64,000 nucleotides of DNA, from positions 29,802 through 93,801 of the forward strand of contig JAICPY010000001.1 in NCBI GenBank assembly GCA_025929585.1, in the 5' to 3' direction. A program made the position numbers and the translations under genes. Below the pieces are notes generated by a model. That model saw only the letters and a program-made list of their open reading frames with translations. It had not been told where the DNA came from and ran no database searches. This DNA comes from Steroidobacter sp. (lineage in GTDB: Bacteria; Pseudomonadota; Gammaproteobacteria; Steroidobacterales; Steroidobacteraceae). Shown here piece by piece: positions 972 to 55,390 of the stretch (positions are counted from its first letter, which is position 1; each line of letters opens with the position of its first letter).

Positions 972-1045
972 GGCGATAGGCGATAGGGGATAGGGGATAG
1001 ATAAAATAGGAGGGACCGTATGCACGGCGCCTATCCCCTATCCCC
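972..1045. repeat. Inverted 7-mer tandem array, GG(C/G)GATA type
   Basis: Four units at 973-1000; two complementary CTATCCC units at 1031-1044. Confidence 0.9.
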
Positions 1046-1051
1046 TTCTTC

Positions 1052-3775
1052 TTAATGCGCATCGTCCCAGTTCTTTCCAGAACCGGCGTCGACACGTAAT
1101 GGCGTGCGCAGATCTGCAGCATCGCACATCAATTTGCGCACCTGTGGGATGAGCTCCTCGACGAGGTCTTCGCGAACCTCGAATACCAACTCATCGTGAA
1201 CCTGCATGATCAAGTGCGCATCGATCTTCGATGCTTGCAACCAACGATCCACTTCGATCATCGCGCGCTTGATGATGTCCGCGGCTGTGCCTTGCATCGG
1301 CGCATTAATTGCGGCGCGCTCGGCTCCTTGCCGCAGATTGTTGTTGCGCGAGTTGATTTCATTCAGATATAGGCGCCTGCCGAAAACCGTTTCGACGTAA
1401 CCGCCTTCGCGCGCCTGTTGGCGAGTTTGATCCATATAGCGGCGCACGCCGGGATAGCGTTGGAAATACAGATCCACATAATGCTGCGCTTCGGTGCGGC
1501 TGATGCCGAGACGACTGGCGAGTCCGAACGCCGACATGCCATAGATGAGTCCGAAGTTGATCGCCTTGGCGGAGCGACGCTGATCCGCGCTGACTTGATC
1601 GAGCGGGATGCCGAATACTTCTGCTGCCGTTGCTTGATGGATGTCGCGGTCCTCGCTGAAGGCATTCAGCAAACCGGCGTCTCCCGATAAGTGCGCCATG
1701 ATGCGAAGCTCGATCTGCGAATAGTCCGCCGCGACGATCAGCCATCCTGGAGGGGCGATGAAAGCTTTGCGTATGCGTCGTCCTTCGGTCGTTCTTATCG
1801 GAATGTTTTGCAGGTTGGGATCGGCGGAAGACAAACGTCCGGTGGCAGCAACCGCTTGCTGGTAGGTCGTGTGCACGCGGCCAGTCTTTGGATTGATCTG
1901 TAGCGGCAGCTTGTCGGTGTACGTCGATTTCAGTTTCGTGCAGCCTCGATATTCCAGGATCGTGCGCGGCAGCTCATAGCTTGCAGCGAGCTCTTCGAGC
2001 ACGTCTTCGGCGGTGGAGGGCTGACCGGTCGGCGTTTTTCGCAACACAGGCAAGCCAAGCTTGCCGAACAAGACCTCTTGGAGTTGCTTCGGCGATTCGA
2101 GCGCGAATGGGCCACCGCCGGACTGATGTGCTTGAGATTCCAATTCGCGCATGCGAGCAGCTAACTCACCGCTTTGCTGCTTCAGTAACGTGCCGTCGAT
2201 CAACACGCCGCGTTGTTCCATTCGGAACAGCACGGGTTCCAGGGGCTGTTCGATCTCCTCATAAAGCTTCTTGACGCCAGGAGCACTCTCGATCTGCGGC
2301 CACAGAACATGATGAAGCTGTAGCGAGACATCGGCTTCTTGCGCGCAGTGCGAGGTGGCAGTGTCGATTGCAATCTGGTTCACCCCGAGCTGCTTGGCTC
2401 CTCTGCCCGCGATGTCCTCGTAACCGATCGTCTCGAATCCAAGGTACTTACGCGCGAGTGACGGCACGTCGTGCTTGACCGCGGTGCTGTTCCAGACGTA
2501 CGACTCCAGCATCGCATCGAAGCGCACGCCCGCAAGCTCGATACCCAATCGTTTGAAGATGTGCGAGTCGAGTTTCAGGTTGTGTCCGGTCTTGATCACA
2601 TTCGGATCTTCCAGCAAGGGCTTCAATTCATTCAGCGCTTCGGATTCCGGCAACTGTGAAGGGGCGCCCGGATAGTCATGGGCGAGCGGCAGGTATGCGG
2701 CTTTTCCAGATCCAATGCAAAAGGAGAGCCCCACTAGCTGCGCTTGCATGTAGTCCATCGAAGTCGTCTTCGTATGGATCGAGATCAACGGCGCTGAACG
2801 CATGCGTCCGATCCATTCGCGCAGCGCATCCATCGTCGTGATCGTTTCATAAGCTTGAATCGGCGGCGCGCTCGAGCTCGGCGCCACAGTCGGCATCGTT
2901 GATCCTTGCTCTCCAGGAGCCGCGGCGTCGAGCTGCCGCAAGTGCGAGCGCAACTCCAAGCGGGTGTAGAGCTCGCGCAGACGATCGCGGTCTGGATCTC
3001 GATGAATGAGCGAGTCATAGGACTGTTCGAGCTCCAGATCACAGTGCAAGGTCGCGAGCTTGCGCGAGAGCTCGAGCTCCGTGAGGCTCGCGCGCAAGCT
3101 TTCGCCGACTTTGCCGGCAATCGCGCCGGCATTCTCGATGAGCTTATCGAGCGTGCCGTACTCGTTGAGCCATTTCGCCGCGGTCTTCGGTCCAACTTTC
3201 GGAACGCCGGGAATGTTGTCCGATGTGTCGCCGACGAGGGCCAAGTAGTCGATGATCTGCTCCGGGTAGACCTCGAACTTGTTCTTCACGCCTTCCCGAT
3301 CCAGGCGCGAGCCCGTCATCGTGTTCACCAAGGTGATCCGATCTCGCACGAGCTGCGCCATATCCTTATCGCCAGTAGAGATCAGAACATCTACATCCTC
3401 GCGCGCTGCACGCACTGCTAGGGTTCCGATCACATCGTCCGCTTCCACGCCTTCGATCCGAATCAACGGCAAACCCATAGCAACCACGCAATCGAGCAGC
3501 GGTTGCAGCTGCGAACGCAAATCATCCGGCATCGGCGAGCGCTGTGCTTTGTACGCCTCGAACAAATCGTCGCGGAACGTGCGGCCGGGTGCGTCGAACA
3601 CCACGCCGATCAGCTGCGGTGATTCCTCCTTGCAGAGTTTCTGCAGCATGTTGAGCACACCGAGCACAGCACCGGTCGGCTCGCCTTTCGAGTTCGACAA
3701 GGGCGGCAGCGCGTGAAAGGCGCGATACAAATACGAGGAACCGTCGACGAGAACGAGCTTGCGTCGAGTGCTCAT
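1052..3775 (-). CDS. polA: DNA polymerase I
   Basis: 907 aa. 5'-3' exonuclease N-terminus (LVDGSSYLYRAFHA, EADDVIGTL), motif A (ADYSQIELR), motif B (RRSAKAINFGLIYG), motif C (QVHDEL). Confidence 0.99.
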   Translation of the reverse strand: MSTRRKLVLVDGSSYLYRAFHALPPLSNSKGEPTGAVLGVLNMLQKLCKEESPQLIGVVFDAPGRTFRDDLFEAYKAQRSPMPDDLRSQLQPLLDCVVAMGLPLIRIEGVEADDVIGTLAVRAAREDVDVLISTGDKDMAQLVRDRITLVNTMTGSRLDREGVKNKFEVYPEQIIDYLALVGDTSDNIPGVPKVGPKTAAKWLNEYGTLDKLIENAGAIAGKVGESLRASLTELELSRKLATLHCDLELEQSYDSLIHRDPDRDRLRELYTRLELRSHLRQLDAAAPGEQGSTMPTVAPSSSAPPIQAYETITTMDALREWIGRMRSAPLISIHTKTTSMDYMQAQLVGLSFCIGSGKAAYLPLAHDYPGAPSQLPESEALNELKPLLEDPNVIKTGHNLKLDSHIFKRLGIELAGVRFDAMLESYVWNSTAVKHDVPSLARKYLGFETIGYEDIAGRGAKQLGVNQIAIDTATSHCAQEADVSLQLHHVLWPQIESAPGVKKLYEEIEQPLEPVLFRMEQRGVLIDGTLLKQQSGELAARMRELESQAHQSGGGPFALESPKQLQEVLFGKLGLPVLRKTPTGQPSTAEDVLEELAASYELPRTILEYRGCTKLKSTYTDKLPLQINPKTGRVHTTYQQAVAATGRLSSADPNLQNIPIRTTEGRRIRKAFIAPPGWLIVAADYSQIELRIMAHLSGDAGLLNAFSEDRDIHQATAAEVFGIPLDQVSADQRRSAKAINFGLIYGMSAFGLASRLGISRTEAQHYVDLYFQRYPGVRRYMDQTRQQAREGGYVETVFGRRLYLNEINSRNNNLRQGAERAAINAPMQGTAADIIKRAMIEVDRWLQASKIDAHLIMQVHDELVFEVREDLVEELIPQVRKLMCDAADLRTPLRVDAGSGKNWDDAH

Positions 3776-4035
3776 CGATCGCTCGGCTGGGTAGGTGGGC
3801 TTGCAGGATCCGCAGGAGATGTAGGCGCGTGAGTGTCCGTAGCGGGCGCGTCTTGCGTTCCCGGTTTGGTCTTCCGATCTCGCTGAGACTCGGGTGTTGG
3901 ATTGCTCGGCACTTGCTCCGGCTGCGCAACTTCTTGCGCCGCTCGATCAGGCAAGTACAACGGACCAGTTTGGCCGCAGGCGCTTAAGCAGAGGCAAGCG
4001 GCTGCAACGAGCGTGAGTACGTAGGGCACCTTCAT
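3772..4035 (-). CDS. lptM: Small lipoprotein, LptM/YifL (LppL) family
   Basis: Lipobox LSAC followed by the family motif CGQTGPLYLP; low-complexity tail; overlaps the polA start by 4 nt. Confidence 0.8.
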   Translation of the reverse strand: MKVPYVLTLVAAACLCLSACGQTGPLYLPDRAAQEVAQPEQVPSNPTPESQRDRKTKPGTQDAPATDTHAPTSPADPASPPTQPSDR

Positions 4036-4058
4036 GGTGGAAGTATAGCGCTGAGAGC

Positions 4059-4158
4059 GTGATGGAAGTGATGGAGGTGATGAAGGCCAGAATAGAGCGT
4101 CGATGCCACTTACCTACATCACCTACATCACTTCCATCACCTTCGTCACCTTCATCAC
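4059..4158. repeat. Inverted 9-mer tandem array, GTGATGGAA type
   Basis: Three units at 4059-4085; five complementary-type units at 4114-4158. Confidence 0.9.
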
Positions 4159-4163
4159 TGTCG

Positions 4164-4589
4164 TCACGTTACTTCCAACACCGCCATTGTGATCCGGGAA
4201 ATGCACACGAGGCGTTCCTGCTCATCGACGATGCGGATCTCCCAAACGTGGCTGCGCTTACCGATGTGAATCGGACGTGCCGTGCCGATCACGAATCCCT
4301 TTGCGATCGCACGCACGTGATTAGCGTTGATCTCTTGCCCAACCGCGCGATACTTACTCGGATCGATAACCAAGCCTGCCGCTACGCTGCCCAGAGTCTC
4401 TGCAAGCGCCACCGATGCGCCGCCATGCAAGATGCCGAACGGCTGACGCGTTCGTTCATCCACCGGCATGCGACCTTTCAAGTAGCCATCACCGAGCTCG
4501 ATGAACTCGATACCTAATTGACTCGCTAGCGTCTGACAGCGAAAGTGAATTTGGTCCAGAGAGTAGGGGTGGAACCAGAGCTGAGTCAT
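4164..4589 (-). CDS. Hotdog-fold thioesterase (PaaI/MenI-YdiI-like)
   Basis: Motif QPFGILHGGASVALAET, then EINANHVR; 141 aa. Confidence 0.92.
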   Translation of the reverse strand: MTQLWFHPYSLDQIHFRCQTLASQLGIEFIELGDGYLKGRMPVDERTRQPFGILHGGASVALAETLGSVAAGLVIDPSKYRAVGQEINANHVRAIAKGFVIGTARPIHIGKRSHVWEIRIVDEQERLVCISRITMAVLEVT

Positions 4590-5899: not shown

Positions 5900-5908
5900 A
5901 GGAATGAA

Positions 5909-6054
5909 GCGGTTAGCGGTTAGCGGTTAGCGGTTGGTTTAGACGCGGAGTACGAGCCGGCTTACCGCGGGCAAAGCGACGTGCACCTGGGGCAACGCTG
6001 TGTATCTCGAAGCATGACGCATTCATTCTGTTCTCCGAACTAACCGCTAACCGT
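5909..6054. repeat. Inverted 7-mer tandem array, GCGGTTA type
   Basis: Four units at 5909-5936; two TAACCG(C/T) units at 6041-6054. Confidence 0.9.
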
Positions 6055-6065
6055 TTCCCTCTTAT

Positions 6066-6992: not shown

Positions 6993-7014
6993 TTCGTAAT
7001 CTCGCTGAAGGTGG

Positions 7015-7146
7015 GTTGAGGGTTGACGGTTGACAGTTGGCGGCCAGAAGCACAGTGAGTGAATTGAGTGTTGGCGGTTAGGAGTTGGCAAATAACGAGC
7101 AGAGTCCGATCTTTTTTCCTGCCGTCAACTGTCAACCGTCAACCTC
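7015..7146. repeat. Inverted 7-mer tandem array, GTTGAC(A/G) type
   Basis: Units at 7015-7042; three (C/T)GTCAAC units at 7123-7143 containing the argF' stop. Confidence 0.9.
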
Positions 7147-8137: not shown

Positions 8138-8143
8138 AAGTTG

Positions 8144-8284
8144 GTGACGAGTGACAAGTGACGGGTGACGGGCAAGAGGTATATGACGACGACTGGCCGC
8201 CATCCCGGATCGATACGTTGATGCAGCAAGGTTCTCACTGAGGCCATCTCCGTAATTTCTTTCCCGTCACTCGTCACTCGTCAC
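8144..8284. repeat. Inverted 7-mer tandem array, GTGACGA type
   Basis: Four units at 8144-8171; three complementary units at 8264-8284 containing the argD stop. Confidence 0.92.
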
Positions 8285-9453
8285 TTCGGGATGCGCACTA
8301 GCGCATCCCGAAGCTGATCCACATGCTCCCGCTCCAGCACGAAGGGCGCGAGGATTCGCAGCACGTTCGGATCGGCGCTGGTGCCGGTGAGAATGCCTTG
8401 GCGTAGCAGCTCGGCCTGGATGTCTTTCGCTGGGCGTGTCGTGCGAAGTCCGAGCAAGAAACCCGCACCTTGCGTTGCGACCACGGGGCCGACCACACAG
8501 CTCTGGCGAATTTCGTTCGAACGCTGACGAACGTTCTCGAGCAGGTTCTCCGATTCGATGATATCGATCACGGCTTCGACGATCGCACAAGCCATGGGGC
8601 CGCCGCCGAACGTCGTACCGAGGGAATCCATCTTGAGGTACGGCGCGATCATGTCCGAGACCAGCATTGCGGAAACCGGGAATCCCGCACCGAGCGCTTT
8701 CGCCGTCGTGAGGATGTCTGGTGTTACGCCGTACATGTTCGCTGCGAATGGATAGCCAGTCCGGCCGACACCGGATTGGACTTCATCGAAAATAAGTATC
8801 GAGCCGTTTTCTGAGCAACGGAATCGCAGCGCTTCGAGGAATGCCTTCGGCAGGTCGACTGCGCCAGCAACACCTTGCACGGGCTCGACGATGACTGCTG
8901 CGGTCTGATCGTCGATCAGCGTCGCGAGCTTGTCGATGTCGCTTGGCTTGATGAAGGCAACATCGAACGGCTTCTTGGGAAAGCCATACCATTTCTTCTC
9001 CGCGCCCCAGGTGACGGCTCCCGCGGCTGCGGTGCGTCCATGGAAACTTCCCTCGACCGCGAGCACCTTAGTACCGCCCGTCATCTTGCACGCGAGCTTC
9101 AGAGCGTTCTCGTTCGCTTCCGCACCAGAGTTCACGAAAAAAATCGTGTCCAAGCCCAGCCCGCAGAATTGTGCGAGCTTCGTGGCGGCACGACGCCGAA
9201 CGTCCATCGGCACTGCATTGCTTTGAAAACAAAGCGAGGTTGCTTGCTTGGTGAGTGCCTCAACCCAGCGCGGATGGCCATAGCCCAGCGCGGCAACCGC
9301 ATGCCCGCCGTAGAGATCGAGCACGCGACGGCCACCAGGCGTATGCAGGTAGACACCTTGCGCATCCACGACTTCCAGCGGAAATTGCGCAAACACAGGT
9401 GCGAGATGATCGGGTAGCGCGCGATTGATCGATGTCACGTTATCTGGGGTCAT
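8281..9453 (-). CDS. argD: N-acylornithine aminotransferase (class III PLP)
   Basis: DLYGGHAV, NSGAEANENALK, FHGRT, FDEVQSGVGRTG, AKALGAG (PLP lysine). Confidence 0.95.
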   Translation of the reverse strand: MTPDNVTSINRALPDHLAPVFAQFPLEVVDAQGVYLHTPGGRRVLDLYGGHAVAALGYGHPRWVEALTKQATSLCFQSNAVPMDVRRRAATKLAQFCGLGLDTIFFVNSGAEANENALKLACKMTGGTKVLAVEGSFHGRTAAAGAVTWGAEKKWYGFPKKPFDVAFIKPSDIDKLATLIDDQTAAVIVEPVQGVAGAVDLPKAFLEALRFRCSENGSILIFDEVQSGVGRTGYPFAANMYGVTPDILTTAKALGAGFPVSAMLVSDMIAPYLKMDSLGTTFGGGPMACAIVEAVIDIIESENLLENVRQRSNEIRQSCVVGPVVATQGAGFLLGLRTTRPAKDIQAELLRQGILTGTSADPNVLRILAPFVLEREHVDQLRDALVRIPK

Positions 9454-9463: not shown

Positions 9464-9600
9464 GAGAGTTAGGGGGTAATGATTAGGGGGTAGGGGGTAG
9501 TAAGAAGCTAGGTCGATGGTTTTACGGGTTAGGCATTAGCAGCAGCAGTTGCCTACTCTTAATTCTGACTATCCCCTACCCCTAATCATTACTCCCTCTC
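9464..9600. repeat. Inverted array, GGGGTAG type
   Basis: GTAATGATTAGGGG in the left arm pairs perfectly with CCCCTAATCATTAC in the right arm; TCTGAC at 9564. Confidence 0.85.
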
Positions 9601-13138: not shown

Positions 13139-13151
13139 TTGTAGGATAGAA

Positions 13152-13256
13152 GCGGTTAGCGGTTAGCGGTTAGCGGATAGTCGGAAGACGGAGCGGAAGA
13201 CGTGCGAGGCGGCGCGTTCTTTCCGAACCCATCCGCCATCCGCTATCGGCTATCCG
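13152..13256. repeat. Inverted 7-mer array, GCGGTTA/GCGGATA type
   Basis: Four units at 13152-13179 then GTCGGA; four C(C/T)ATC(C/G)G units at 13229-13256 containing the argR stop. Confidence 0.88.
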
Positions 13257-15786: not shown

Positions 15787-15870
15787 GTGCAGAAGGGTGC
15801 ATAGGTGCAGAGGTCAGAAGTGCCCGGTACTTTCCGACGTTACACCTCTACACGTCTACACTTGTACACC
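15787..15870. repeat. Inverted 8-mer array, GGTGCAGA type
   Basis: Left arm ends in GTCAGA; right arm TTCCGAC then CTACAC units; convergent Nudix/tamB junction. Confidence 0.7.
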
Positions 15871-19644: not shown

Positions 19645-21464
19645 TAAAACTGCGTGGATATATACAAGTGAAACCGCGGACTGCGACCCGACTGCGACAG
19701 CGCCTGCGCGACGTCTACACCGAAGCTCGCGACCGCGATGCGGTAGCGCGCACCGATGCCAACGGAGTATTCCAATCCGGGGTCCGAGAAATCATCGAAC
19801 GCGTTGCCGATGTCGTAGAACACCGCAGCGCCGAAGTTGCGGGGCAGGTCACGGACCAACTCCACTGTCCCGGTTGCCAGATGCCGGCCGCCCACCGTCC
19901 TGCGTTGGATCTCGCCTTCGGCGTTTCTTTGCTCGACCACTGGGGACAACTCGTTCAAGCCGAAACCGCGAACGCTACGCTCGCCGCCTGCGAAGAATCG
20001 CTGCGATGCTGGCAATTCCGAGAAATCGGCCACTCGGCTCGCACCTAGCTCGGTGCGAAGGTGCAGATGCCAGCGCTCTGCGAAGTCGAATACTCTCTCG
20101 CCTTGAATGCGTAGCTGCAAGAACGACGCGTCGGATCCCAGAGTGCTTGGCGAGCCGCGCAACTCCGCATAGAAGTACCAAGGTCGAATGCGATCCCCGA
20201 CGATATAGCTGGGCAGGGTGGAATAACTGATTCCGGGGATCAGATAAAAATCTTCTTTCGTAATCGACTCGACGGGTGCGATCCCAGTAACTGGGTCGAG
20301 AGCCGCAGGCTCGGTGGTCGTCTCGTTCGACAACCGCAGGAACAAAACACGCTGCCAACGTCCCATCACCTCGGTCAGCGCGGAACCGATCTCCTGACGT
20401 TCGCTGAAGGTATCGCCGAGCTCTTCGTCCGCGAGCGTCGCCGTGAACTCCAACTTCTCCAACGCAACATCCATTACCGGGATGACGTAACGTCCCGAGA
20501 GTTGTTTGATCACTGAGGATCCGAGCAATTCGACTTTGGCACGATGCCCGTTTTTGTTGACGCGGCGATCGTCCCAAGTGAAGCGTCCGCGGACCTTCGT
20601 GTCGGTGCCGTAGCCCAAACTCGTCGCGAAACGATGGCGCCGATTGGCGCGCGCCGTAACCGTGATCGGTACAGTGCGATTCTCGCGGTCGAGCTCGCCG
20701 CTTTCGATGTCGACGCCTGAGAAGTACAAGCTGTCATCCAAAACGTATTGCGTGCGAAGCAGCGAATCCAATGTGTAGGGATCGCCCGTTTCCATTCGCA
20801 GCATCCGGCGCATCGCCGCATCGTTGATTACATCTTGCGCGATCGTGATCTCGCCGTAGTGATATCGCTCGCCAGTTTGCAGCTCGATCATCGCCGTCGC
20901 ACGCCGCTCGACACGATCGATCAGCAGGTCGCTTCTTGTCAGCTGTGCATCCAGATATCCGGCATTCTTCGCCGCACGCAGCAGCTCGCCTTTGACGCGT
21001 TCGTACGTGCCGTGATTCAAACGAAGCCCCGGCTTGAGAACCTGAGCATCGATGATCTCGTTCAACGCGCGCAGATCCTTGCCCGGACCTTCGATATCGA
21101 TCTGCACTTCGGACAACCGCACCGGTCGGCCCGGCCGCACGTTCACTGTGGCGTGCCAGCCATTGTCACGAGGCGTCACGTCGTAGGTGACTTCCGGTTC
21201 GTAGTAACCCAGAGGCTGCAATGCTTCGCGCACCTCTCCTACGATGCGCCGCTGCAATCGCGACATCGTCTCCGGCGTGACGTCATCGCGCTCCGCGTAA
21301 CGCGTCAAACTCAAATACGCGCGAACATTCGCTTCGAGCTGTGGTGTCAGCCCGGGCACCTCGATTTCGATGCCAGCGCGCGCGACCGAGCAGAGCGCGA
21401 AGGAGATCCAGAGTGCCAGCGAGGTGTGTAGCACAAAACGTCGAGGTCGAATCCGACGCAACAA
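19644..21464 (-). CDS. tamA: TamA, Omp85-family outer-membrane protein
   Basis: POTRA-like N-terminus, FFAGGERSVRGF lid-lock motif, C-terminal Phe. Start uncertain (TTG at 21464 or 21461); the ORF-track extension to 21722 runs through a palindromic element and is unlikely to be coding. Confidence 0.88.
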   Translation of the reverse strand: MLRRIRPRRFVLHTSLALWISFALCSVARAGIEIEVPGLTPQLEANVRAYLSLTRYAERDDVTPETMSRLQRRIVGEVREALQPLGYYEPEVTYDVTPRDNGWHATVNVRPGRPVRLSEVQIDIEGPGKDLRALNEIIDAQVLKPGLRLNHGTYERVKGELLRAAKNAGYLDAQLTRSDLLIDRVERRATAMIELQTGERYHYGEITIAQDVINDAAMRRMLRMETGDPYTLDSLLRTQYVLDDSLYFSGVDIESGELDRENRTVPITVTARANRRHRFATSLGYGTDTKVRGRFTWDDRRVNKNGHRAKVELLGSSVIKQLSGRYVIPVMDVALEKLEFTATLADEELGDTFSERQEIGSALTEVMGRWQRVLFLRLSNETTTEPAALDPVTGIAPVESITKEDFYLIPGISYSTLPSYIVGDRIRPWYFYAELRGSPSTLGSDASFLQLRIQGERVFDFAERWHLHLRTELGASRVADFSELPASQRFFAGGERSVRGFGLNELSPVVEQRNAEGEIQRRTVGGRHLATGTVELVRDLPRNFGAAVFYDIGNAFDDFSDPGLEYSVGIGARYRIAVASFGVDVAQALSQSGRSPRFHLYISTQF

Positions 21465-21652
21465 AGATCTCTCGCAGCGGCGTGGCGGCGCAGCGGATTC
21501 GATAGAAGCTAATGCGGGGTAGCCTCCTTCTTCGCATGTCTCAGTCTTCTTAGTTGACTTCCTATCGTCAAAGACCGTTCTACCAAAAACGCGACGCAGG
21601 CTAACGGAATCACTGTCTCCCGCCGCGCCGCCGCGCCGCTGCGAGAAATCTT
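21464..21652. repeat. 189-bp palindromic element with 33-bp imperfect terminal inverted repeats
   Basis: 21464-21496 versus the reverse complement of 21620-21652 match at 30/33; nested inner stems (GATTC/GAATC, TAGCCT/AGGCTA, TTGAC/GTCAA). Confidence 0.75.
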
Positions 21653-22591: not shown

Positions 22592-22722
22592 GGCAATAGG
22601 GAATAGGGGAAAGGGGATGGTCAGAGAAGAATGAGATCTCGAGGCTGAACGGAACGTGAGCAGCAAGGTGAATCCTCGAGAGTCTGACGACCCGCGAGTC
22701 ACTAGTCACGAGCCGCGATCCT
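22592..22722. repeat. Array pair with non-matching arms
   Basis: GG(G/C)(A/G)A(T/A)A x4 then GTCAGA; TCTGAC then GACCCGC/GAGTCAC-type units. Confidence 0.75.
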
Positions 22723-23680
22723 ATCTCTTCGGCGCGCGCCACAGCTTCACTCCGGGCTCCTCGCGCAGCGGCACACGAGCCCCTTCGTTGTACCAATCCT
22801 CGATCAGCCGGAACGAAATCGAATGGGTGATGGGCAGTGCGACATTGCCGGCGGCAATCTGTTCGCGCGTCAACCAGCGTGCGTCTTCGAGCTCCGCATC
22901 GGCGAGTGTGATCTCGACGCTGCTCGCACGAGCGGTAAAGCCCAACATCAGCGACGAGGGGAACGGCCACGGCTGAGAGGAGTGATAGTCGACAAAGTCG
23001 ACATCAACCCCGGTTTCTTCCGCAACTTCTCGAATAACGGCGTCTTCGAGACTTTCACCCGGCTCGACGAACCCCGCAATCGTCGAATATCTACCCGCCG
23101 GCCAACTAGCCTGTCGGCCCAGAAGCACTCGCTCGCCATCCGTGATCAACACGATGATTGCCGGATCGATGCGCGGAAACACCTGTTCACCGCAGACTGG
23201 ATTGGTACATTGGCGAACGTGACCGCCTTGCATGGCGCGCGTGGGCGTGCCGCATCGGCCGCAGAATCGGTGCCGATCCCGCCAATGAAGCATGGCGCGC
23301 GCATAGGCAAGAAGCCCGGCTTCCTCTGTCGGAAGTTCCCCAGCGATGCCGCGCAAGTCATGCGCTTCCACGGCTTCCTCGAAGCCAGGCAGCTCGGGTG
23401 TGGTGAATGCCACCGCAAAGCAGGTGTGTCGATGGAATTCGCCCAACAGCACGACTTCCTCGGCTTCAACTGGCATGAATCTGCGCACGTCCGAGACCAA
23501 CAGGGCTTGCAGCGACTCGCCCACATTTCTCACGAGGCTCTGATTACGCCATACCGGTACGAATAGCGTATTCGGATCCTCCAACGCTGTCCGCCACAAG
23601 GCCTCGTCTTTGCGCCAGTGCGCTAAACGATCGATGTAGTTCCCGGCGAGCAGATTTCCATGCGAGCGGAGCCTTGTCAT
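22721..23680 (-). CDS. nudC: NAD(+)/NADH diphosphatase
   Basis: Zinc finger (FCGRCG...CTNPVC), FPRIDPAIIV, Nudix box GFVEPGESLEDAVIREVAEETG, SQPWPFPSSLM. Confidence 0.96.
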   Translation of the reverse strand: MTRLRSHGNLLAGNYIDRLAHWRKDEALWRTALEDPNTLFVPVWRNQSLVRNVGESLQALLVSDVRRFMPVEAEEVVLLGEFHRHTCFAVAFTTPELPGFEEAVEAHDLRGIAGELPTEEAGLLAYARAMLHWRDRHRFCGRCGTPTRAMQGGHVRQCTNPVCGEQVFPRIDPAIIVLITDGERVLLGRQASWPAGRYSTIAGFVEPGESLEDAVIREVAEETGVDVDFVDYHSSQPWPFPSSLMLGFTARASSVEITLADAELEDARWLTREQIAAGNVALPITHSISFRLIEDWYNEGARVPLREEPGVKLWRAPKR

Positions 23681-26495: not shown

Positions 26496-26585
26496 AGTCA
26501 CGAGTCCACAGTCCGCAGTCTGTAGTCCGTGGCCAGAATCTCGTCCCCTCTTGCTGTGGACTGCAGACTGCGGACTAAGGACTGA
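26496..26585. repeat. Inverted 7-mer array, AGTCCGC type
   Basis: Five AGTC-NNN units at 26496-26530; four CT-NNN-GA units at 26554-26581. Confidence 0.85.
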
Positions 26586-29232: not shown

Positions 29233-29362
29233 GTCGTGATTCGTGACCCGGCCGCCTGCAGGTGCAAGTGTCTCGTGATCCGTGACTCGCGGGTAGTCAG
29301 AAGGGGGCGCGAGGATTTCGTCGAGCATTCTTGCTACCCGCGACCCGCTAGTCACGACCCGC
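29233..29362. repeat. Inverted 7-mer array, TCGTGA/TCACGA type
   Basis: Duplicated AAGTGT...CGTGAT.CGTGAC block, GTCAGA at 29296, right arm CCGCGAC/TCACGAC. Confidence 0.7.
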
Positions 29363-29396
29363 TTTCGCGGCCGAAGCTCGCGCGCCGCCATCGCGG

Positions 29397-30651: not shown

Positions 30652-32061
30652 GTGGGCCGACTCGTTTGTGTTTCCAATCGTATCTCGCTGCCACGCAAGT
30701 CCGCGGCGCCAGGCGGCCTAGCCGTCGGAATCTTGAGTGCGTTGAAGCGCACCGGGGGCGTTTGGTTTGGGTGGGGCGGGGACACCACCGAGCAAGATCC
30801 TCCTACCGAACCCGACATTCATATCCGAGACGGTGTCACCTACGCGACGATCGAGCTGCGTCAGAGCGAATACGAGCTGTACTACAACGGCTATTCGAAT
30901 GACCTGTTGTGGCCGCTGTTCCATTATTTCCTGCGCGGCATGCGCTATTCCAACGAAGAGCGAGATGCCTATGAAAGCGTCAACCGCTCCTTTGCACAGA
31001 AGCTCAGCCCGCTCCTGCAGCCTCAGGACTTGATTTGGGTCCATGACTATCACCTGATTCCGCTCGGCCGGTTGCTGCGCGAGGCAGGGGTCAAGCGCCC
31101 GCTAGGTTTTTTCTTGCACATCCCTTTTCCGAACATCGAGATGTTGAGGGTGCTGCCCACGTATGCAGAGCTGCTGCGCGATCTGACGCATTACGACGTG
31201 ATCGGCTTTCAAACCGAAAACGACCTCAAAGGCTTTCATTCCGGCATCGAGCATCTATTCGGAGCAGAAGCCATCCGTTCCGATGGGCGCATTCGCGTCG
31301 GCGATCGAGTGCTGCGGGCCGAAGTATTTCCGATCGGTGTCGATGTCGATTCCATGCAAGCGGAGGCGATCGCGGCCATGGAAACGGATGTCGTCAAGCG
31401 AATGATCGATAGCTTGATGTCGCGCTCACTGATGATCGGAGTCGACCGGCTCGACTACAGCAAGGGATTGGTCGAACGTTTCTCCGCCTATCAGCAGTTC
31501 CTAGAAACTTATCCGGATAACATTGGCCGCATCACCTATATCCAGATCGCACCTCTATCGCGTACCGACGTGCGTGCCTATGCGGATATTCGCAAGGCGT
31601 TGGAGCAGGCTGCGGGGCGCACGAACGGACGGTTTGCGGATACCGATTGGACGCCGATTCGTTATCTGAACCGAAATTTTCCGCACGGGACCTTATCCGG
31701 GTTCTTGCGCGCAGCGAACGTGGGCGTCGTCACGCCTCTTCGTGATGGCATGAATCTGGTGGCGAAGGAATTCGTTGCGGCGCAAGACATAGATAATCCC
31801 GGCGTGTTGATCTTGTCGACACTGGCGGGCGCTGCGCGCGAGCTGGGATCCGCGTTACTCGTAAATCCATATGACACTCGAGCAGTGAGCCACGCGATGC
31901 AAACCGCGCTTTCTATGCCCTTGGCCGAACGCCGCGAACGACACATGGCTATGCTGGAAGTCGTCAAACGCAACGATATTTCGAGCTGGACAAACCGGTT
32001 CGTAGAGGCGCTCGAAGCGTCTCAGAGGGATCAGTCGCGTCCGCGCGTCTTGGCTAGCTAG
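30652..32061 (+). CDS. otsA: Trehalose-6-phosphate synthase (GT20)
   Basis: VSNR, LWPLFHY, WVHDYHL, GVDRLDYSKG, DGMNLVAKEF. GTG start at 30652 with RBS GGAG. Confidence 0.96.
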   Translation: MGRLVCVSNRISLPRKSAAPGGLAVGILSALKRTGGVWFGWGGDTTEQDPPTEPDIHIRDGVTYATIELRQSEYELYYNGYSNDLLWPLFHYFLRGMRYSNEERDAYESVNRSFAQKLSPLLQPQDLIWVHDYHLIPLGRLLREAGVKRPLGFFLHIPFPNIEMLRVLPTYAELLRDLTHYDVIGFQTENDLKGFHSGIEHLFGAEAIRSDGRIRVGDRVLRAEVFPIGVDVDSMQAEAIAAMETDVVKRMIDSLMSRSLMIGVDRLDYSKGLVERFSAYQQFLETYPDNIGRITYIQIAPLSRTDVRAYADIRKALEQAAGRTNGRFADTDWTPIRYLNRNFPHGTLSGFLRAANVGVVTPLRDGMNLVAKEFVAAQDIDNPGVLILSTLAGAARELGSALLVNPYDTRAVSHAMQTALSMPLAERRERHMAMLEVVKRNDISSWTNRFVEALEASQRDQSRPRVLAS

Positions 32062-32160
32062 TGGGGAAGTGACGAAGTGACGAGGTGACGGGGTGACGAC
32101 GTCAGATAGAGCGCGCACACATTCTGGCTTCGTCACCCCGTCACTTCGTCACCTCGTCAC
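32061..32160. repeat. Inverted 8-mer array, GTGACGAA type
   Basis: Five units then GTCAGA; TCTGGC then four NNCGTCAC units; convergent otsA/mscS junction. Confidence 0.92.
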
Positions 32161-33256
32161 TTGGGCTTTCCTCAATCATCTCCGTCTGCACAGCGACTGG
32201 CCGCTCGACTTTCAAACGCTGCACGTTCTGCGCGAGCGATACGCCTTCATTCTCCAGCATCTCCAATAGTTTCAGCTGCAGGTCCTGCAGGATATCCATG
32301 TGCCGATTGAAGTCAGCGGACTTCACGATGTAGATCGTTTCGAAGTCGAAGGACGATACGCTGATCTTCGCGAAATGAGATCGATCGAATTGCGTGTCAG
32401 GGTACGCTTCGATGAGCTTGCGCAGCGCGTTCGGAATCGCCGCAAGCTTCTCGCGGGAAGTATCTTGGGTCACGCCGAAGGTGAGCACTACTCTGCGTTG
32501 CTGCATTCGTGCGAAGTTGCGTACACGGCTGCTGAGCAGATTGGAGTTCGGCATGATGATTTGCTCACCATCCGGACTGCGCAAGCGAGTGCTCTTCACG
32601 CCGATGTACTCAACTGTGCCTGCGATTCCATCGACCGAGAGCGCGTCGCCGACCACGAAGGGCTTATCGAGAGTGATCGACAGCGAGGCGAACAGATCGC
32701 TCAACACGTTCTGGACCGCCAGGGCGACGGCGATACCACCGATGCCGAGACCGGCAAGTAATGGCTTGATCTCAATGCCTAGATTGTCGAGCGTGAGCAG
32801 CACTACCAGCGACCAAATCGTCGCGCGCGCGATAAAACCGATGATGCCGATCGTGCCGGCGGCTGCGCGGTCCGTAGTTAGGGCTGCTCGCTGCTTGCGC
32901 TCCAGAGCTGCGAGAACGGCAGTCGTCGCCCAAGCGCCAGCCTGCCAAAACGCGTTGATGGTGAAAATCGTGAACATCAGTGTGTCGATCTTCGAAGGCA
33001 GATCCAACGACTGCGACGCTGCGAACAGTGCGGCAATGAAGATGAACAGCAGCGCGGTGCGACTGACGACCATGAGTGGAAGCTCGATCAACTCTTCCTT
33101 CGGTGTGGCCATCAACTTCGCATGCTGAGCTCGGACCAAACGGCGAACGAGCAGCAGGCTCAGGAGCACGCCCACAAAGACCGCAACCGCCGTCAACCAT
33201 TGCGACGGGGTATTGCCGAGGTAGCGCGTATCCAGTAGGTGAGTAATGTCAGTCAT
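32141..33256 (-). CDS. Small-conductance mechanosensitive channel (MscS family)
   Basis: GIGGIAVALAVQNVLSDLFAS, DKPFVVGD, GTVEYIGVKSTRLR. Confidence 0.92.
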   Translation of the reverse strand: MTDITHLLDTRYLGNTPSQWLTAVAVFVGVLLSLLLVRRLVRAQHAKLMATPKEELIELPLMVVSRTALLFIFIAALFAASQSLDLPSKIDTLMFTIFTINAFWQAGAWATTAVLAALERKQRAALTTDRAAAGTIGIIGFIARATIWSLVVLLTLDNLGIEIKPLLAGLGIGGIAVALAVQNVLSDLFASLSITLDKPFVVGDALSVDGIAGTVEYIGVKSTRLRSPDGEQIIMPNSNLLSSRVRNFARMQQRRVVLTFGVTQDTSREKLAAIPNALRKLIEAYPDTQFDRSHFAKISVSSFDFETIYIVKSADFNRHMDILQDLQLKLLEMLENEGVSLAQNVQRLKVERPVAVQTEMIEESPSDEVTK

Positions 33257-34593: not shown

Positions 34594-34601
34594 ATGCAGA
34601 A

Positions 34602-34697
34602 GGCGATAGGCGATAGCGGATGGGCGATAGTCAGATGCCGGCTAGTTGTTGACATGCACGTTCTGACTATCCCCTATCCCCTATCCCCTATCCCCTT
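34602..34697. repeat. Inverted 7-mer array, GGCGATA type
   Basis: Four units then GTCAGA (34630); TCTGAC (34662) then TATCCCC x4. Confidence 0.92.
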
Positions 34698-34709
34698 CGC
34701 GGACGTGTA

Positions 34710-38707: not shown

Positions 38708-38834
38708 GTTAAGGAGCGGGGCGTTGCGCGATGAGCGACTCTACCGGAAGATCCGTGTCGCTCGCGACTCACTCGCCCGGGAAACGTGATGCTATTCTTG
38801 CGTGAGGGTAATGGCGAAAGCCATTCGCGAAAGG

Positions 38835-38905
38835 GTTGACTGTTGACTATTGACAGTTGACGGTCAGAGAAAGACGCCGATTCCGGCTGTCAACCGTCAA
38901 CTGAC
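38835..38905. repeat. Inverted 7-mer array, GTTGAC type
   Basis: Four units then GTCAGA (38863); TTCCGGC then two (T/C)GTCAAC units. Confidence 0.88.
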
Positions 38906-41924: not shown

Positions 41925-41933
41925 GGAGTTTTG

Positions 41934-42155
41934 GTGACGGAGTGACGAGTGACGGGTGACGGGCAAGAGAAGAGGAATCGCGATGCGAACTTACAACGTA
42001 GGGTATTTCGTGTCGACTCGCAGCAGCACGAGGAGTGAGTTGACGGTTGACAGTTGGCTGTTGACAGCAAGATAAAGAATACACACGCTTCGCCGTCACC
42101 CGTCACCCGTCACCCGTCACCCGTCACCCGTCACCCGTCACCCGTCACCCGTCAC
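41934..42155. repeat. Composite array locus
   Basis: GTGACG(A/G) x4 (41934-41962), GTTGAC-type x4 (42039-42066), CCGTCAC x9 perfect (42093-42155). Confidence 0.95.
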
Positions 42156-42190
42156 CCGCCGATCTCCCTGAGCGCGTCGAAGGGCCGTCA

Positions 42191-45292: not shown

Positions 45293-45353
45293 GATTCGGC
45301 ACCGATGAAATGTGGGTGTGAAGGGCGTTAGGTCGAAAGAGTTGACGCAACTA

Positions 45354-45369
45354 CTAACCGCTAACCGCT
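45354..45369. repeat. Short CTAACCG x2 arm at the MFP stop
   Basis: Complement of the GCGGTTA unit; contains the stop codon of the adaptor gene. Confidence 0.55.
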
Positions 45370-48596: not shown

Positions 48597-48825
48597 TAGA
48601 TGAACGGCAGTCTAAATCTGAAGGCGTTAGGAAGATCCGCGTCTGCGGCCAGAGAGGGATCGCATCTCCGTCCGGATTTTGGCTGCGGACCGCGGACCCT
48701 CAGCCGGCTACATTCCCGGCCGATATCCACCGATGTCGCCATGCATCCTCTGCCCGCATTGAGCATTGGTCGGATTTCCTTACTGCGCGGCAGGGGTACA
48801 GTCGGAACTAAACGGTTGTAGACCC

Positions 48826-53385: not shown

Positions 53386-54321
53386 ATGAAAGCGCTCGCC
53401 TTTCGCCAACTGACGAAGACTTACAAGAATGGCGTCCGTGCGCTCAAGGGCATCGATCTGGACGTCGAGGAGGGGGATTTCTTTGCGCTGCTCGGTCCGA
53501 ACGGCGCCGGAAAAACCACTGCAATCGGTATCGTGACCTCGCTGGTTAATAAGAGTGGCGGCAAGGTAGAAGTCTTTGGGCATGACATCGACACGCAGCT
53601 CGCGCTGGCGAAATCATGCATCGGTCTGGTCCCGCAGGAAATCAATTTCAATCAGTTCGAGACAGTCACGACGATTCTCGTGAATCAGGCAGGGTTTTAT
53701 GGTCTGCCGCGGCGTGTTGCTCACGATCGGCTCGAGAAGTATCTGACAGCGTTGCAGCTCTGGGACAAGCGCAACAGCATCTCTCGCAGCCTGTCCGGCG
53801 GCATGAAGCGCCGCTTGATGATCGCACGCGCTTTGATGCATGAACCCAGGTTGCTGATCTTGGATGAACCGACCGCGGGCGTGGACATCGAAGTACGCCG
53901 CTCGATGTGGACATTCATGCGCGATATCAACGTCGCCGGCACAACGATCATCCTGACCACCCACTATCTGGAAGAGGCAGAGAGCCTGTGCCGCCATGTG
54001 GCCATCATCGACAAAGGGCAGATCATCGAGAACGACAGAATGAGCCGGGTTCTTCGCAAGCTGCAAACCGAGGTATTCGTTTTCAATCTGCGAAACCCCA
54101 TCGCAGCGCTGCCGGATTTGCCTGGCTACCGGACCACGCTACCCGACGATCATACGATCGAGATCGAGATGTCAAAGGACCAAAATCTCAACGACATCTT
54201 CTCGCGGCTGAGTGCGAGCGGCATCGAAGTGCTATCGATGCGCAACAAGACGAACCGGCTGGAAGAGCTGTTCATGAGATTGGTGAATAAAGAAGAGAAG
54301 GCGATAGGGGATGGGCGATAG
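53386..54321 (+). CDS. yadG: ABC transporter ATP-binding protein, YadG-like
   Basis: GPNGAGKTT, LSGGMKRR, LILDEPT, NRLEELF. Confidence 0.9.
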   Translation: MKALAFRQLTKTYKNGVRALKGIDLDVEEGDFFALLGPNGAGKTTAIGIVTSLVNKSGGKVEVFGHDIDTQLALAKSCIGLVPQEINFNQFETVTTILVNQAGFYGLPRRVAHDRLEKYLTALQLWDKRNSISRSLSGGMKRRLMIARALMHEPRLLILDEPTAGVDIEVRRSMWTFMRDINVAGTTIILTTHYLEEAESLCRHVAIIDKGQIIENDRMSRVLRKLQTEVFVFNLRNPIAALPDLPGYRTTLPDDHTIEIEMSKDQNLNDIFSRLSASGIEVLSMRNKTNRLEELFMRLVNKEEKAIGDGR

Positions 54322-54476
54322 GGGATAGTCAGAATCAGCAGCTAGACTCATCGGTTCGTTTCTACAAATGTTCCTCAAGCTCGACATTGCCAACTTCAAT
54401 ATCATGATCATTCGCGAGCTCAATCGTTAGCGAGTCACTTCCGATACCTATCGCCTATCCGCTATCCCCTATCGCC
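54300..54476. repeat. Inverted 7-mer array, GGCGATA type
   Basis: Four units then GTCAGA (54328), containing the yadG stop; four CTATC-NN units at 54448-54475. Confidence 0.9.
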
Positions 54477-54490
54477 TTCACTCGGCCCCC

Positions 54491-55264
54491 ATGCTTCTCA
54501 AAACCAATATCGTCGGCTTCAACACGATCGTCATTCGCGAGTTCAATCGGATTCTGCGTATTTGGGGACAGACGATCGTACCGCCGGCGATCACGGCGAC
54601 GCTCTACTTCATCATCTTCGGCAGCCTGATCGGCCGGCGCATCGGCGACATGGGCGGGTACTCTTATATCCAGTACATCGCTCCTGGCCTGATCATGATG
54701 TCGGTAGTCACGAACTCTTACGGCAACGTGGTCTCATCGTTCTTCGGCGCCAAGTTCGGCAAGCACATCGAAGAGTTGCTGGTCGCGCCGCTTCCGAACT
54801 GGCTAATCGTGATCGGTTACATGATGGGCGGCATTGCGCGCGGATTGCTGGTCGGACTCGTCGTTACGATCATCACGTTGATCTTTACGCGACTGCACAT
54901 CCACAACATCGCTATCGTGATTTCAGCTGTGGTGCTGAGCTCGATCGTGTTCTCGTTGGCGGGGATGATCAACGCCGTCTTCGCAAAGAACTTCGATCAA
55001 ATCTCCTTTATTCCGACGTTCGTGTTGACGCCGCTTACCTATCTTGGCGGCGTGTTTTATACGATCACGCTGCTGCCTGAATGGGCGCAGCACATCTCGC
55101 ACGCAAATCCGATTCTGTATATGGTCAACGCCTTCCGATTCGGATTCCTCGGCGTATCCGACGTCGACCTCGGTTTTGCCTATCTGATCATGATTGGCTC
55201 TGCGCTCGTTCTCTTCACCGCATGCGTGTGGCTGATGTATCGCGGGGTGGGGACGAGAGAATGA
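54491..55264 (+). CDS. yadH: ABC-2 permease, YadH-like
   Basis: IWGQTIVPP, IAPGLIMMSV, PLTYLGGVFY, NPILYMVNAFR. Confidence 0.9.
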   Translation: MLLKTNIVGFNTIVIREFNRILRIWGQTIVPPAITATLYFIIFGSLIGRRIGDMGGYSYIQYIAPGLIMMSVVTNSYGNVVSSFFGAKFGKHIEELLVAPLPNWLIVIGYMMGGIARGLLVGLVVTIITLIFTRLHIHNIAIVISAVVLSSIVFSLAGMINAVFAKNFDQISFIPTFVLTPLTYLGGVFYTITLLPEWAQHISHANPILYMVNAFRFGFLGVSDVDLGFAYLIMIGSALVLFTACVWLMYRGVGTRE

Positions 55265-55270
55265 AGCATA

Positions 55271-55390
55271 GTGACGGGTGACCGGTGACGAGTGACGAGT
55301 CAGAAAACAATGGTGACGGGATGGCGACGACGCAAGGTAAGCGTGTGCTTTCCGCTCTCACCCGTCACCCCGTCACCCGTCACTTGTCAC
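55271..55390. repeat. Inverted 7-mer array, GTGACGA type
   Basis: Four units then GTCAGA (55299); complementary units at 55362-55390; convergent yadH/PQQ dehydrogenase junction. Confidence 0.92.

Follow-up and report, generated by a model that had tools for sequence, protein, structure and literature searches.

The 64,000-nt stretch of DNA considered here (hereafter the window; assembly GCA_025929585.1, contig JAICPY010000001.1) belongs to a soil bacterium of the family Steroidobacteraceae (Gammaproteobacteria, Steroidobacterales) and carries at the junctions between its genes a family of dispersed elements made of short tandem repeats, mostly in inverted pairs. The window has a GC content of about 58% and its gene content is of the housekeeping type: polA, lptM, a hot-dog thioesterase gene, an arg operon, tamAB, dinB, mdh and mla, together with genes for acrAB-like efflux, ABC transporters and a TonB-dependent receptor. 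The arg operon is located on the minus strand in the order argR-argG-x10785-argC-argD-argF'-argB-argH. Its member x10785 (10785-11864, minus strand) is a 359-aa open reading frame (ORF) between argG and argC, the product of which is 85-94% identical across Steroidobacteraceae and has no sequence match in Pfam, NCBIfam or PDB; x10785 is a strongly conserved member of the arginine operon. ArgF' of the window shares 94-95% identity with its counterparts in metagenome-assembled genomes (MAGs) labelled 'Lysobacterales bacterium' and about 90% with those of Povalibacter uvarum, Steroidobacter spp. and Peristeroidobacter soli. Two contigs of the MAG GCA_025937305.1 are 99.7% identical to positions 9497-23139 and 99.97% identical to positions 33261-36229 of the window. 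No tRNA or tmRNA gene was found in the window.

Tandem arrays with a period of 7-9 nt were called by Tandem Repeats Finder (TRF), the calls being merged, and were compared with those in thirty dinucleotide-preserving shuffles of the window. There are 42 such arrays (1150 nt) in the window, compared with 6.0 ± 2.7 (113 nt) in the shuffles, and the non-coding 9% of the window holds at least 67% of the array bases. TRF thus recovered the arrays where a preliminary description of this DNA had placed them and with the units named there, and the strong intergenic excess that it had claimed is real. Most of the apparent overlap with coding sequence is due to over-long ORF starts of argB, argF', the metC-like gene and tamA; the signal peptide of TamA begins near 21460. 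Longest-ORF starts run through arrays at 7091, 8203, 21722 and 41966, and the gene caller used for the public MAG likewise takes an over-long tamA start. An 81-codon ORF at 29146-29391, which consists mostly of the sequence of the element at 29266..29364, is probably spurious.

The arrays usually occur as two complementary arms, as had also been proposed. The longest local inverted repeats of the window are nearly all array arms and, in a separate scan for strong inverted repeats, 12 of the 16 found were periodic and 2 more were degenerate members of the family. For comparison, about 160 loci with the conserved polA-lptM-thioesterase-arg operon synteny (individual loci are given below by L numbers) were collected from relatives. 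Within the window and 80 of the related loci, the consensus units were complementary in 35 of 57 neighbouring arrays not more than 250 nt apart; for array pairs drawn at random, the figure was 1.9%.

Hand curation, with co-directional junctions counted from 25 nt upwards, gave 22 element-bearing junctions in the window (Table 1), which is in agreement with the earlier estimate of more than 20. Elements are present at 17 of 22 co-directional junctions (about three quarters), 3 of 7 convergent and 2 of 8 divergent ones. The region from argR to argH contains six paired elements and one half-element; x10785->argC is the sole empty junction and argG->x10785 has a single arm. The repeat unit does change between adjacent arg junctions but, because chance alone would produce this in about 14% of cases (an estimate) at these family frequencies, the change is not significant.

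The elements are not assembly artefacts, since the independently made assembly of the same-species MAG matches them base for base and the isolate genome of P. uvarum DSM 26723 (L003) also carries elements. Short-read assemblies nevertheless seem to be broken or blurred by them. The contig of the short-read MAG at L081 ends within the argC->argD element (window 9497-9600), and its last 100 nt hold 7 of its 43 differences from the window, clustered in the spacer of the 9470-9600 element.

Table 1. Repeat elements at gene junctions of the window. Strand is unassigned (.) for all 22 rows; folds are those of the RNA, with ΔG in kcal/mol.
Position	Junction	Type	Units, boxes and spacer	ΔG	z	Remarks
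964..1048	polA->OmpA-like gene	paired	GGCGATA/GGGGATA; spacer 29 nt	-36	-4.4	
4059..4167	thioesterase->lptM	paired	9-nt units GTGATGGAA; box GCCAGAA	-48.6	-5.5	arm overlaps thioesterase stop codon
4590..4716	argH->thioesterase	paired	GTGACGR; boxes GCAAGA/GCAAGC	-58.3	-7.2	argH stop TGA inside one arm; other arm touches thioesterase ATG
5906..6062	argB->argH	paired	GCGGTTA; spacer 105 nt	weak	-1.9	unit GCGGTTA also at argB->argH in P. uvarum (L003)
7014..7146	argF'->argB	paired	GGTTGAC; boxes GCCAGAA/GGCAGGAA	-51.5	-6.4	arm overlaps argF' stop
8142..8286	argD->argF'	paired	GTGACGR; boxes GCAAGAG/GGAAAGAA	-69.4	-7.0	arm starts at argD stop (AAGTGA); other arm ends 6 nt before argF' ATG
9470..9600	argC->argD	paired	composite arms GGGGGTA-ATGATTA-GGGGGTA-GGGGGTA, mirrored; boxes GTAAGAA/GTCAGAA	-57	-7.7	homologous module in L001, L017
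11872..11914	argG->x10785	single half-module	four 9-nt units GTGATGNNN + box GGCGGAAAGG			no partner arm; on mRNA a pyrimidine-rich array ending 7 nt before ATG
13149..13256	argR->argG	paired	GCGGTTA vs GCGGATR; boxes GTCGGAAGA/TTCGGAAAGA	-48.3	-4.3	argR stop TAG inside arm
15787..15869	convergent Nudix gene/tamB	weak paired	8-nt GGTGCAKA; boxes GTCAGAAG/GTCGGAAAG		-0.9	not significant
21464..21652	TANGO2-like gene->tamA	paired	8-nt units CGCGGCGG; spacer 123 nt			intergenic with tamA start placed near 21460
22592..22725	nudC-like->TANGO2-like gene	heterologous pair	GGGGAWA-type vs GTGACTN-type; box GTCAGA both		-1.7	arms not complementary
26497..26584	acyl-CoA dehydrogenase->dinB	paired	AGTCCGC; boxes GCCAGAA/GCAAGAG	-47.5	-6.2	
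29266..29364	mdh->acyl-CoA dehydrogenase	degenerate paired	boxes GTCAGAA/GCAAGAA	-41.4	-3.1	
32060..32162	convergent otsA-like/mscS-like	paired	8-nt units GTGACGAN; boxes GTCAGA/GCCAGAA; 40-nt arms	-70.3	-10.7	
34599..34698	mlaE->mlaF	paired	GGCGATA-type 5' arm, perfect (TATCCCC)x4 3' arm; GTCAGA both	-54	-7.8	one C·C mismatch per unit; identical in second assembly
38833..38903	divergent PLD-like gene/GFO-IDH-MocA oxidoreductase	paired	GTTGACN; boxes GGTCAGAG/GCCGGAAT		-2.8	
41933..42158	acrB-like->metC-like gene	composite	outer pair (GTGACGR)x4 and (CCGTCAC)x9.4			spacer with extra half-module (GTTGACR)x4 + GCAAGA at 42038-42073
45323..45368	acrA-like->acrB-like gene	minimal	one GGCGTTA + box GTCGAAAGAG facing (CTAACCG)x2			(CTAACCG)x2 overlaps upstream stop
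48637..48699	divergent tetR/patatin-like gene	minimal paired	GTCCGCR; box GCCAGAG			
54294..54482	ABC ATPase->ABC-2 permease	paired	GGCGATA/GGGGATA; boxes GTCAGAA/ATCGGAAG; spacer 118 nt			
55270..55396	convergent ABC-2 permease/glucose/sorbosone dehydrogenase	paired	GTGACGR; boxes GTCAGAA/GCGGAAAG	-61.4	-4.2	left arm: 30 nt identical to element at 4590

Each arm is a half-module of about 35 nt. It consists of about four tandem units, normally 7 but sometimes 8 or 9 nt long, and a conserved inner box after them, GYMRGAR, which was found by aligning the arms at their inner ends. Most heptamer and octamer arrays have 3.9-4.4 copies per arm; the extreme, 9.4 copies, is at 42093-42158. The variants of the box are GTCAGAA, GCCAGAA, GCAAGA(G), GTAAGAA, (G)TCGGAA(A)G and GGCAGGAA. 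About 33 of the 42 half-sites delimited by hand in the window have the box. Its loose form ([CA]AGA or CGGA) occurs at 67 of 140 half-sites delimited automatically in the window and 80 relatives, compared with 12% of random intergenic windows; CAGAA is enriched 10-fold, and GATAGTCAGA occurs 4 times where 0.08 occurrences are expected. Since the box lies on both sides, its copies pair as the top of the stem. On either strand, the order of the parts is 5'-purine-rich array, box, spacer, box', pyrimidine-rich array-3'. In 32 of 35 complementary neighbouring arrays and in 82 of 96 periodic inverted pairs, the 5' arm was the one with the purine-rich unit; the 96 pairs, like the later G·U counts described below, come from 144 non-redundant sequences (1.87 Mb). 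Spacers are 13-135 nt long with 40-65% GC, and an all-against-all comparison found only the 7-10-nt inner box in common. A miniature inverted-repeat transposable element with a conserved body was therefore rejected, although terminal inverted repeats are present.

We take the half-module rather than the pair as the building block; lone half-modules, a heterologous pair and a composite element exist. Lone half-modules occur at 11872-11914 and at the same junction, argG->x10785, in most relatives; the arms of the pair at 22592-22725 belong to different families and both end in GTCAGA; and the element at 41933-42158 has an additional half-module within its spacer.

The elements lie very close to stop and start codons. 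In transcription orientation, the purine arm overlaps the upstream stop or is separated from it by a gap of not more than 6 nt in 12 of the window's 16 co-directional cases; overall, this holds for 36 of 73 arm-to-stop adjacencies. Stop codons of argH, argF', argD, argR and the genes for the thioesterase, the acrA-like protein and the ABC ATPase fall within arrays; the C-terminus of the ABC ATPase is ...KAIGDGR*, its last codons (AIGDGR*) being encoded by the array at 54294..54482. The distance from the pyrimidine arm to the next start, read by eye, is 0-27 nt with a median of about 8-11 nt. No Shine-Dalgarno sequence was visible by eye, in an unscored inspection, before the starts of the thioesterase gene, argH, argF', argD, argG and the OmpA-like gene. 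The possibility that the array has truncated argH was rejected, as about 398 aa is the normal ArgH length in all relatives. The units might have been seeded from the local stop-codon context, an idea which is weakened by the recurrence of the same unit families at other junctions and in other genomes; for the same reason, it is more likely that the arrays supply or replace the end of the ORF. Stop codons in all three frames were present in 24 of 96 5' arms, compared with 1.7% of shuffled arms. However, the proportion of 5' arms with any stop (67%) matches that of shuffled arms (60%), so we rejected the three-frame stops as a selected feature and regard them as a by-product of the 7- or 8-nt period. 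ATG or GTG occurs in 9 of 96 3' arms, a depletion relative to shuffled arms (21%).

In L012, L017, L045, L002 and L001, the last ~35 nt before argH contain a small conserved hairpin that the window lacks. Its 5' half contains GGAG and its 3' half the argH start, as in CCATGGAG-TTG-CTCCATGA, and it looks like a translation-control stem.

When folded as sense RNA, 12 of 17 elements gave a single hairpin of 15-40 bp, with ΔG of -36 to -70 kcal/mol and z of -3.1 to -10.7, and no shuffle of these 12 was equally stable. The exceptions were the weak pair at 15796, the heterologous pair at 22590, the mis-paired combination 42038/42158, the element at 5908 with its 105-nt spacer and the divergent-region pair at 38833, for which 3 of 200 shuffles were equally stable. 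The preliminary description, which had suggested hairpins for mRNA stability, processing or termination and a search for compensatory changes, was supported with regard to folding. The wobble signature expected of selected RNA pairing was not found: G·U and A·C mismatches in the sense-strand stems of co-directional periodic pairs numbered 26 and 23 in the window and 80 loci and 32 and 27 in the 144 sequences, that is, without bias in a test of modest power (59 informative mismatches). The suggested role in termination was not supported. A consensus scan of the window gave no terminator-like or promoter-like call at the elements, no T-run or U-tract follows the arms at any of them, and they lie inside a conserved operon. 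Promoters in the spacers were rejected on the same scan, and the window has no Rfam match at gathering thresholds. A canonical intrinsic terminator (GAAGGCCGCTG...CAGCGGCCTTTTTCTTTT) is present at 61150-61185 after the TonB-dependent receptor gene, which means that this genome uses ordinary terminators unlike the heptad elements. The element is not a terminator.

The arms can also drift apart as blocks. At 34599-34698 and in L043, there is one mismatch per unit between the arms, and at argB->argH the arms of L028, L029 and L027 are not complementary. The homogenisation within an arm is therefore apparently a DNA-level process independent of the partner arm. In L029 and L027, an insertion of about 200 nt with long complementary segments, CCTCTCCTTGGGGAGAGG ... 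CCTCTCCCCAAGGAGAGG and TGCGCACGAAGTGTGCA, was observed between the arms at argB->argH; it is to all appearance a different, nested repeat element common to the two MAGs.

The family is lineage-wide, and a single junction can be an ATGA overlap or a 5-30-nt gap in some relatives and carry elements with different units in others. The argD->argF' element consists of GTGACGA in the window, GTGACGAN in L045, GTGATGAA in L017, GTGATGACG in L011, GTGATNGAA in L028 and GTGAGNAA in L061. At argB->argH, GGCTNNA-type units are present in about a dozen genomes (GGCTGGA in L001 and L061, GGCTGTA in L045, L013 and L012, GGCTACA in L002), with both arms usually changed together. The composite arm GGGGRTA-RTGAYYA-GGGGRTA-GGGGRTA and its box are common to the window, L001 and L017 at argC->argD, where the spacers are unalignable and differ in length; the composite module is also found at argH->thioesterase in L017. 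Some elements, that at argC->argD for example, are clearly old. The units GCGGTTR, GTTGACR, GTGACGR, GGGGRTA, GGCTGTA and GTGATGNN belong to a limited, shared repertoire and turn up at various junctions in various genomes. At a contig end of L002 (1-300, minus strand), there are three direct copies of a repeat of about 105 nt that contains the module; each copy comprises a GGGGATA-GTGAYTA-GGGGGTA-GGGGATC-GTCAGAG half-module and then a small GC hairpin (GGCGCAC...GTGCGCC). Thirty nucleotides, among them a rare variant unit, are identical between the window's arms at 4590 and 55270; the copying of whole arms between loci of the window was nonetheless not established by the permutation test of unit order mentioned below.

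Abundance is high in the lineage of the window, in Povalibacter-like genomes and in several MAGs, and near zero in the Steroidobacter/Peristeroidobacter isolate loci L007, L019 and L021; L007 and L019 have only a 3' half-module, at argF'->argB. The lineages of L036, L045 and L027 are further element-rich ones, and Steroidobacter agaridevorans, S. flavus and Peristeroidobacter soli are element-poor. Copy numbers at six elements were the same in the strain with 99.7% identity. Among locus pairs at least 99.5% identical (about 100 kb compared, from 160 loci), neither a unit-sized indel in intergenic arrays nor a gain or loss of a whole element was found. The elements are thus not contingency loci. 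A metagenome scan gave no further strains of the window species. No target-site duplication was visible at argD->argF' and argF'->argB, where relatives with 75-95% protein identity blur the boundaries. The metagenome contigs L106 (974-1102) and L118 (1778-1842) are 97% identical across argF' and about 76% identical from argF'->argB onward, so that the break at this element-bearing junction would be either a recombination breakpoint or an assembly chimera.

Tandem heptamers have reportedly been known as cyanobacterial short tandemly repeated repetitive (STRR) sequences since 1990, when Mazel et al. are said to have described several heptanucleotide families dispersed in heterocystous cyanobacteria, mainly outside genes. 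The elements described here likewise are dispersed tandem heptanucleotide families outside genes, with other units and in another phylum. To our knowledge, an inverted-pair hairpin with an inner box is not a defining feature of STRR sequences. The description of the elements as STRR-like tandem heptamers that form hairpin-folding inverted pairs in transcribed operon junctions is supported by our results.

The closest published case is that of the GGGAATC arrays of Xanthomonas and the GGGGA(C/T)T arrays of Nostoc (Rehm et al. 2015, PLoS One, PMC4692102). Xanthomonas has about 186 arrays per ~5 Mb and 70-75 convergent inverted pairs per genome; the G-rich strand is the coding strand when the array lies 0-50 nt from the stop or overlaps it, and the non-coding strand just before starts (PMC4692102). 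The arrays in both genera are strongly intergenic, mostly have about four units, are transcribed and prefer junctions of same-direction ORFs, being rare between divergent ones; their position is conserved and their length varies between species. No link with surface genes or with mobile elements was seen, and G-quadruplex (G4) formation was given as the reason for the preference for four units (PMC4692102). Here too, there are tandem heptamers in intergenic regions, with about four units, in convergent pairs, adjacent to stops and few at divergent junctions. As this geometry is the same, we consider our elements to be of the same kind as the Xanthomonas repeats. In contrast to the GGGNATC/GGGGAYT units of Rehm et al., of which GGGGATA and GGGGGTA (about 5 of 22 elements) are the nearest counterparts, the other units of the window are without G-tracts, and many unrelated 7-, 8- and 9-nt unit families coexist in one genome. 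The density is about 10 times that in Xanthomonas (about 20 elements per 64 kb), the host belongs to Steroidobacterales, and the inner box GYMRGAR, which is not reported in the 2015 paper, sets the elements apart from that description. Full-text literature searches found no published description of such repeats in Steroidobacteraceae. The earlier statement that no description was known thus holds for this family of bacteria, but repeats of this kind have been described in Xanthomonas and Nostoc.

Repetitive extragenic palindromic (REP) sequences stabilise mRNA and, according to a 2015 study by Liang, Rudd and Deutscher, are reportedly able to stall ribosomes when located within about 15 nt of a stop codon; both effects could apply to the present elements. 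In enterobacteria and pseudomonads, REPs, bacterial interspersed mosaic elements (BIMEs) and REP doublets forming hairpins (REPINs) are ~35-nt dispersed extragenic repeats, present in hundreds of copies and often as inverted doublets with a long hairpin, whose lineage-specific families occupy transcribed junctions and 3' ends (PMC3116915, PMC2817692). Our half-module is likewise an extragenic repeat of ~35 nt, often in a hairpin-forming inverted doublet, with the copies counted in the window and related loci. Whereas the REP unit is a palindrome with a 5' GTAG-type tetranucleotide, mobilised by a REP-associated tyrosine transposase (RAYT), the half-module is a tandem array with its conserved motif GYMRGAR at the top of the stem, on the loop side, and no RAYT gene was found in the 64-kb window; the elements had rightly been set apart from GTAG-type REPs. 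Foldback (FB) transposons, which are eukaryotic, kilobase-scale and transposase-associated, have inverted arms of tandem short units. Our elements share with them such arms and the variable internal sequence, whereas no such enzyme was found in the 64 kb. As reported in PMC4679880 and PMC4692102, Mrazek et al. (2007) observed that, among long simple sequence repeats, heptamers show the greatest over-representation in several large GC-rich genomes, and proposed polymerase slippage as their source; as it is presented there, that work takes arrays as simple repeats and leaves inverted pairing, a conserved flanking box and shared unit families out of consideration. Arrays of 2-6 copies of TAACTGA, for which a post-transcriptional role was proposed, lie directly before starts without canonical ribosome-binding sites in marine Beggiatoaceae (MacGregor 2015, PMC4679880); these differ from our elements in having a single unit, in being almost always direct (with one inverted case) and in their lineage.

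We favour, with a probability of about 0.5, the explanation that the elements are a REP/STRR-like family of dispersed palindromes which are generated and kept uniform at the DNA level and retained where they suit the boundaries of ORFs. The unbiased G·U count, the independent homogenisation of arms, the heterologous pairs and the lone half-modules all favour such an origin, as does the dispersal of the same unit families over different junctions and genomes. Replication slippage would even out the units within an arm, and occasional copying between arms and between loci would spread a limited number of unit families. Elements would persist where they do little harm, that is, in short gaps between genes, and their fixed polarity would set a stop-rich array right after the upstream ORF and a start-poor, Shine-Dalgarno-less pyrimidine array right before the next one. 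Within operon transcripts, the complementary pair would fold as a 15-40-bp hairpin without a U-tract, and the base of the stem would draw the upstream stop and the downstream start together. From the predicted structure and from REP biology, we infer effects on stability, processing and coupling: the hairpin may be a REP-like barrier to 3' exonucleases, its long double-stranded stem may be processed by an RNase III-type enzyme, and it may mask the downstream start until a terminating ribosome opens it.

Several observations weigh against this explanation. Slippage cannot be fast, because the arrays are stable between strains at least 99.5% identical, and the shared unit order among loci within the window is only suggestive (permutation test, P of about 0.1). 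The G·U test, as stated, had modest power, and the relatives were sampled at a single genomic neighbourhood. Slippage alone does not account for the conserved box or for the prevalence of arrays with about four units, which hint at recognition by a protein or at templating. Moreover, many old elements keep complementary arms though their units differ between genomes, as at argB->argH, which could equally reflect selection for pairing.

Such selection is the core of the first alternative, according to which the elements are RNA hairpins selected for mRNA stability, RNase III-type processing or decoupling of cistrons, with arms that co-evolve for pairing. The very stable predicted hairpins, their position at transcribed junctions, their scarcity between divergent genes and the retention of arms and box in homologous elements (window, L001, L017) whose spacers cannot be aligned are all compatible with it, and so is the finding of the same changed unit in both arms at argB->argH in different genomes. 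We nevertheless regard it as possible but on balance doubtful, because RNA-level selection does not fit the sense-strand mismatch counts, the persistence of non-complementary pairs and lone half-modules, the homogenisation of one arm apart from the other at 34599-34698 or the many relatives with overlapping or 5-30-nt junctions without an element.

The second alternative, an active foldback- or REPIN-type mobile element whose enzyme, for example an HUH/Y1 transposase, is encoded elsewhere and reads the box and hairpin rather than the units, we consider unlikely. The 64-kb window has no gene for a transposase, HUH nuclease, RAYT or reverse transcriptase; no target-site duplication was visible where filled and empty junctions of rather distant relatives were compared, and the unique spacers mean that there is no master copy. 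Insertion/deletion polymorphism is absent among strains at least 99.5% identical, and the units often blend into the local stop-codon context. Mobility would, however, account for the conserved inner box and the fixed polarity of the hairpin, for limited unit families and a composite four-unit module at different junctions and in different genomes, for the three direct module-containing copies in L002, and for the patchy abundance among lineages with independent presence or absence at the same junction. We still give some weight to an active enzyme-driven mechanism since slippage leaves the box and the four-unit rule unexplained.

Rather improbable, in our opinion, is the third alternative, that the elements serve the boundaries of translation: the purine array would ensure termination in every frame and the pyrimidine array would be a Shine-Dalgarno-independent leader, for example for S1. 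The hairpin would clamp the stop beside the start, so that coupling survives an insertion of 100-150 nt. A similar proposal has been made for the TAACTGA repeats (MacGregor 2015, PMC4679880). The arms abut stop and start codons, several downstream starts inspected by eye have no visible Shine-Dalgarno sequence, ATGA overlaps or very short gaps take the place of the elements in relatives, lone 3' half-modules precede x10785 in most genomes, and ATG and GTG are depleted in 3' arms. The share of 5' arms with a stop is, however, no higher than in shuffled arms, the three-frame stops being a by-product of the period, and elements are also located between convergent and between divergent genes.

The G4 structures proposed for the Xanthomonas and Nostoc repeats are very improbable as the general cause. 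GGGGATA and GGGGGTA arrays of about four units could form G4, and the preference for about four units is that of Rehm et al., so G4 may apply to the G-rich subfamily. G-tracts are, however, present in only about 5 of 22 elements, and the same architecture and four-unit preference hold for arrays of GTGACGR, GTTGACR, GCGGTTA, AGTCCGC and GTGATGNN, which cannot form G4. Intrinsic terminators or phase-variable contingency repeats deserve hardly any credence: the hairpins do lie downstream of ORFs and tandem repeats can slip, but the elements lack the U-tract and the terminator-like call of the canonical terminator at ~61150-61185, they lie inside a conserved biosynthetic operon, their copy numbers are identical in close strains and the genes that flank them are housekeeping genes.

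Three direct repeats of ~14 nt (GTCCGTTGTGGTTG / GTCCGTTGTGGCCC / GTCTGTTGTAATTT) were observed at 24363-24489, in the divergent region upstream of an FlhC-like gene. They are outside the heptad family and may be an operator.

The elements have a practical consequence for annotation, since they create spurious ORFs and over-long gene starts. The conserved inner box, the half-module as the basic unit and the shared repertoire of units are features beyond those treated in earlier work, and the fixed polarity of the hairpin, the independent homogenisation of the arms and the lack of an RNA-level wobble signature add constraints on any explanation. The existence of non-G4 units with the same architecture removes the sole functional hypothesis attached to the Xanthomonas case. 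The question is experimentally approachable thanks to the very high density of the elements and the availability of a cultured relative that carries them, P. uvarum DSM 26723. More speculatively, and with little confidence, the half-modules could be the footprint of an unknown machinery at gene boundaries, or the hairpins could be stop-start clamps. In the latter case, the upstream stop would be held next to a downstream Shine-Dalgarno-less start, with translational coupling kept across insertions of 100-150 nt. In the former case, modules might be written or copied by a nuclease or transposase specific for hairpins, or by a templated polymerase; if this were true, the elements would represent a bacterial class of foldback-type mobile elements which would also account for the GGGAATC pairs of Xanthomonas and the STRR sequences of cyanobacteria.

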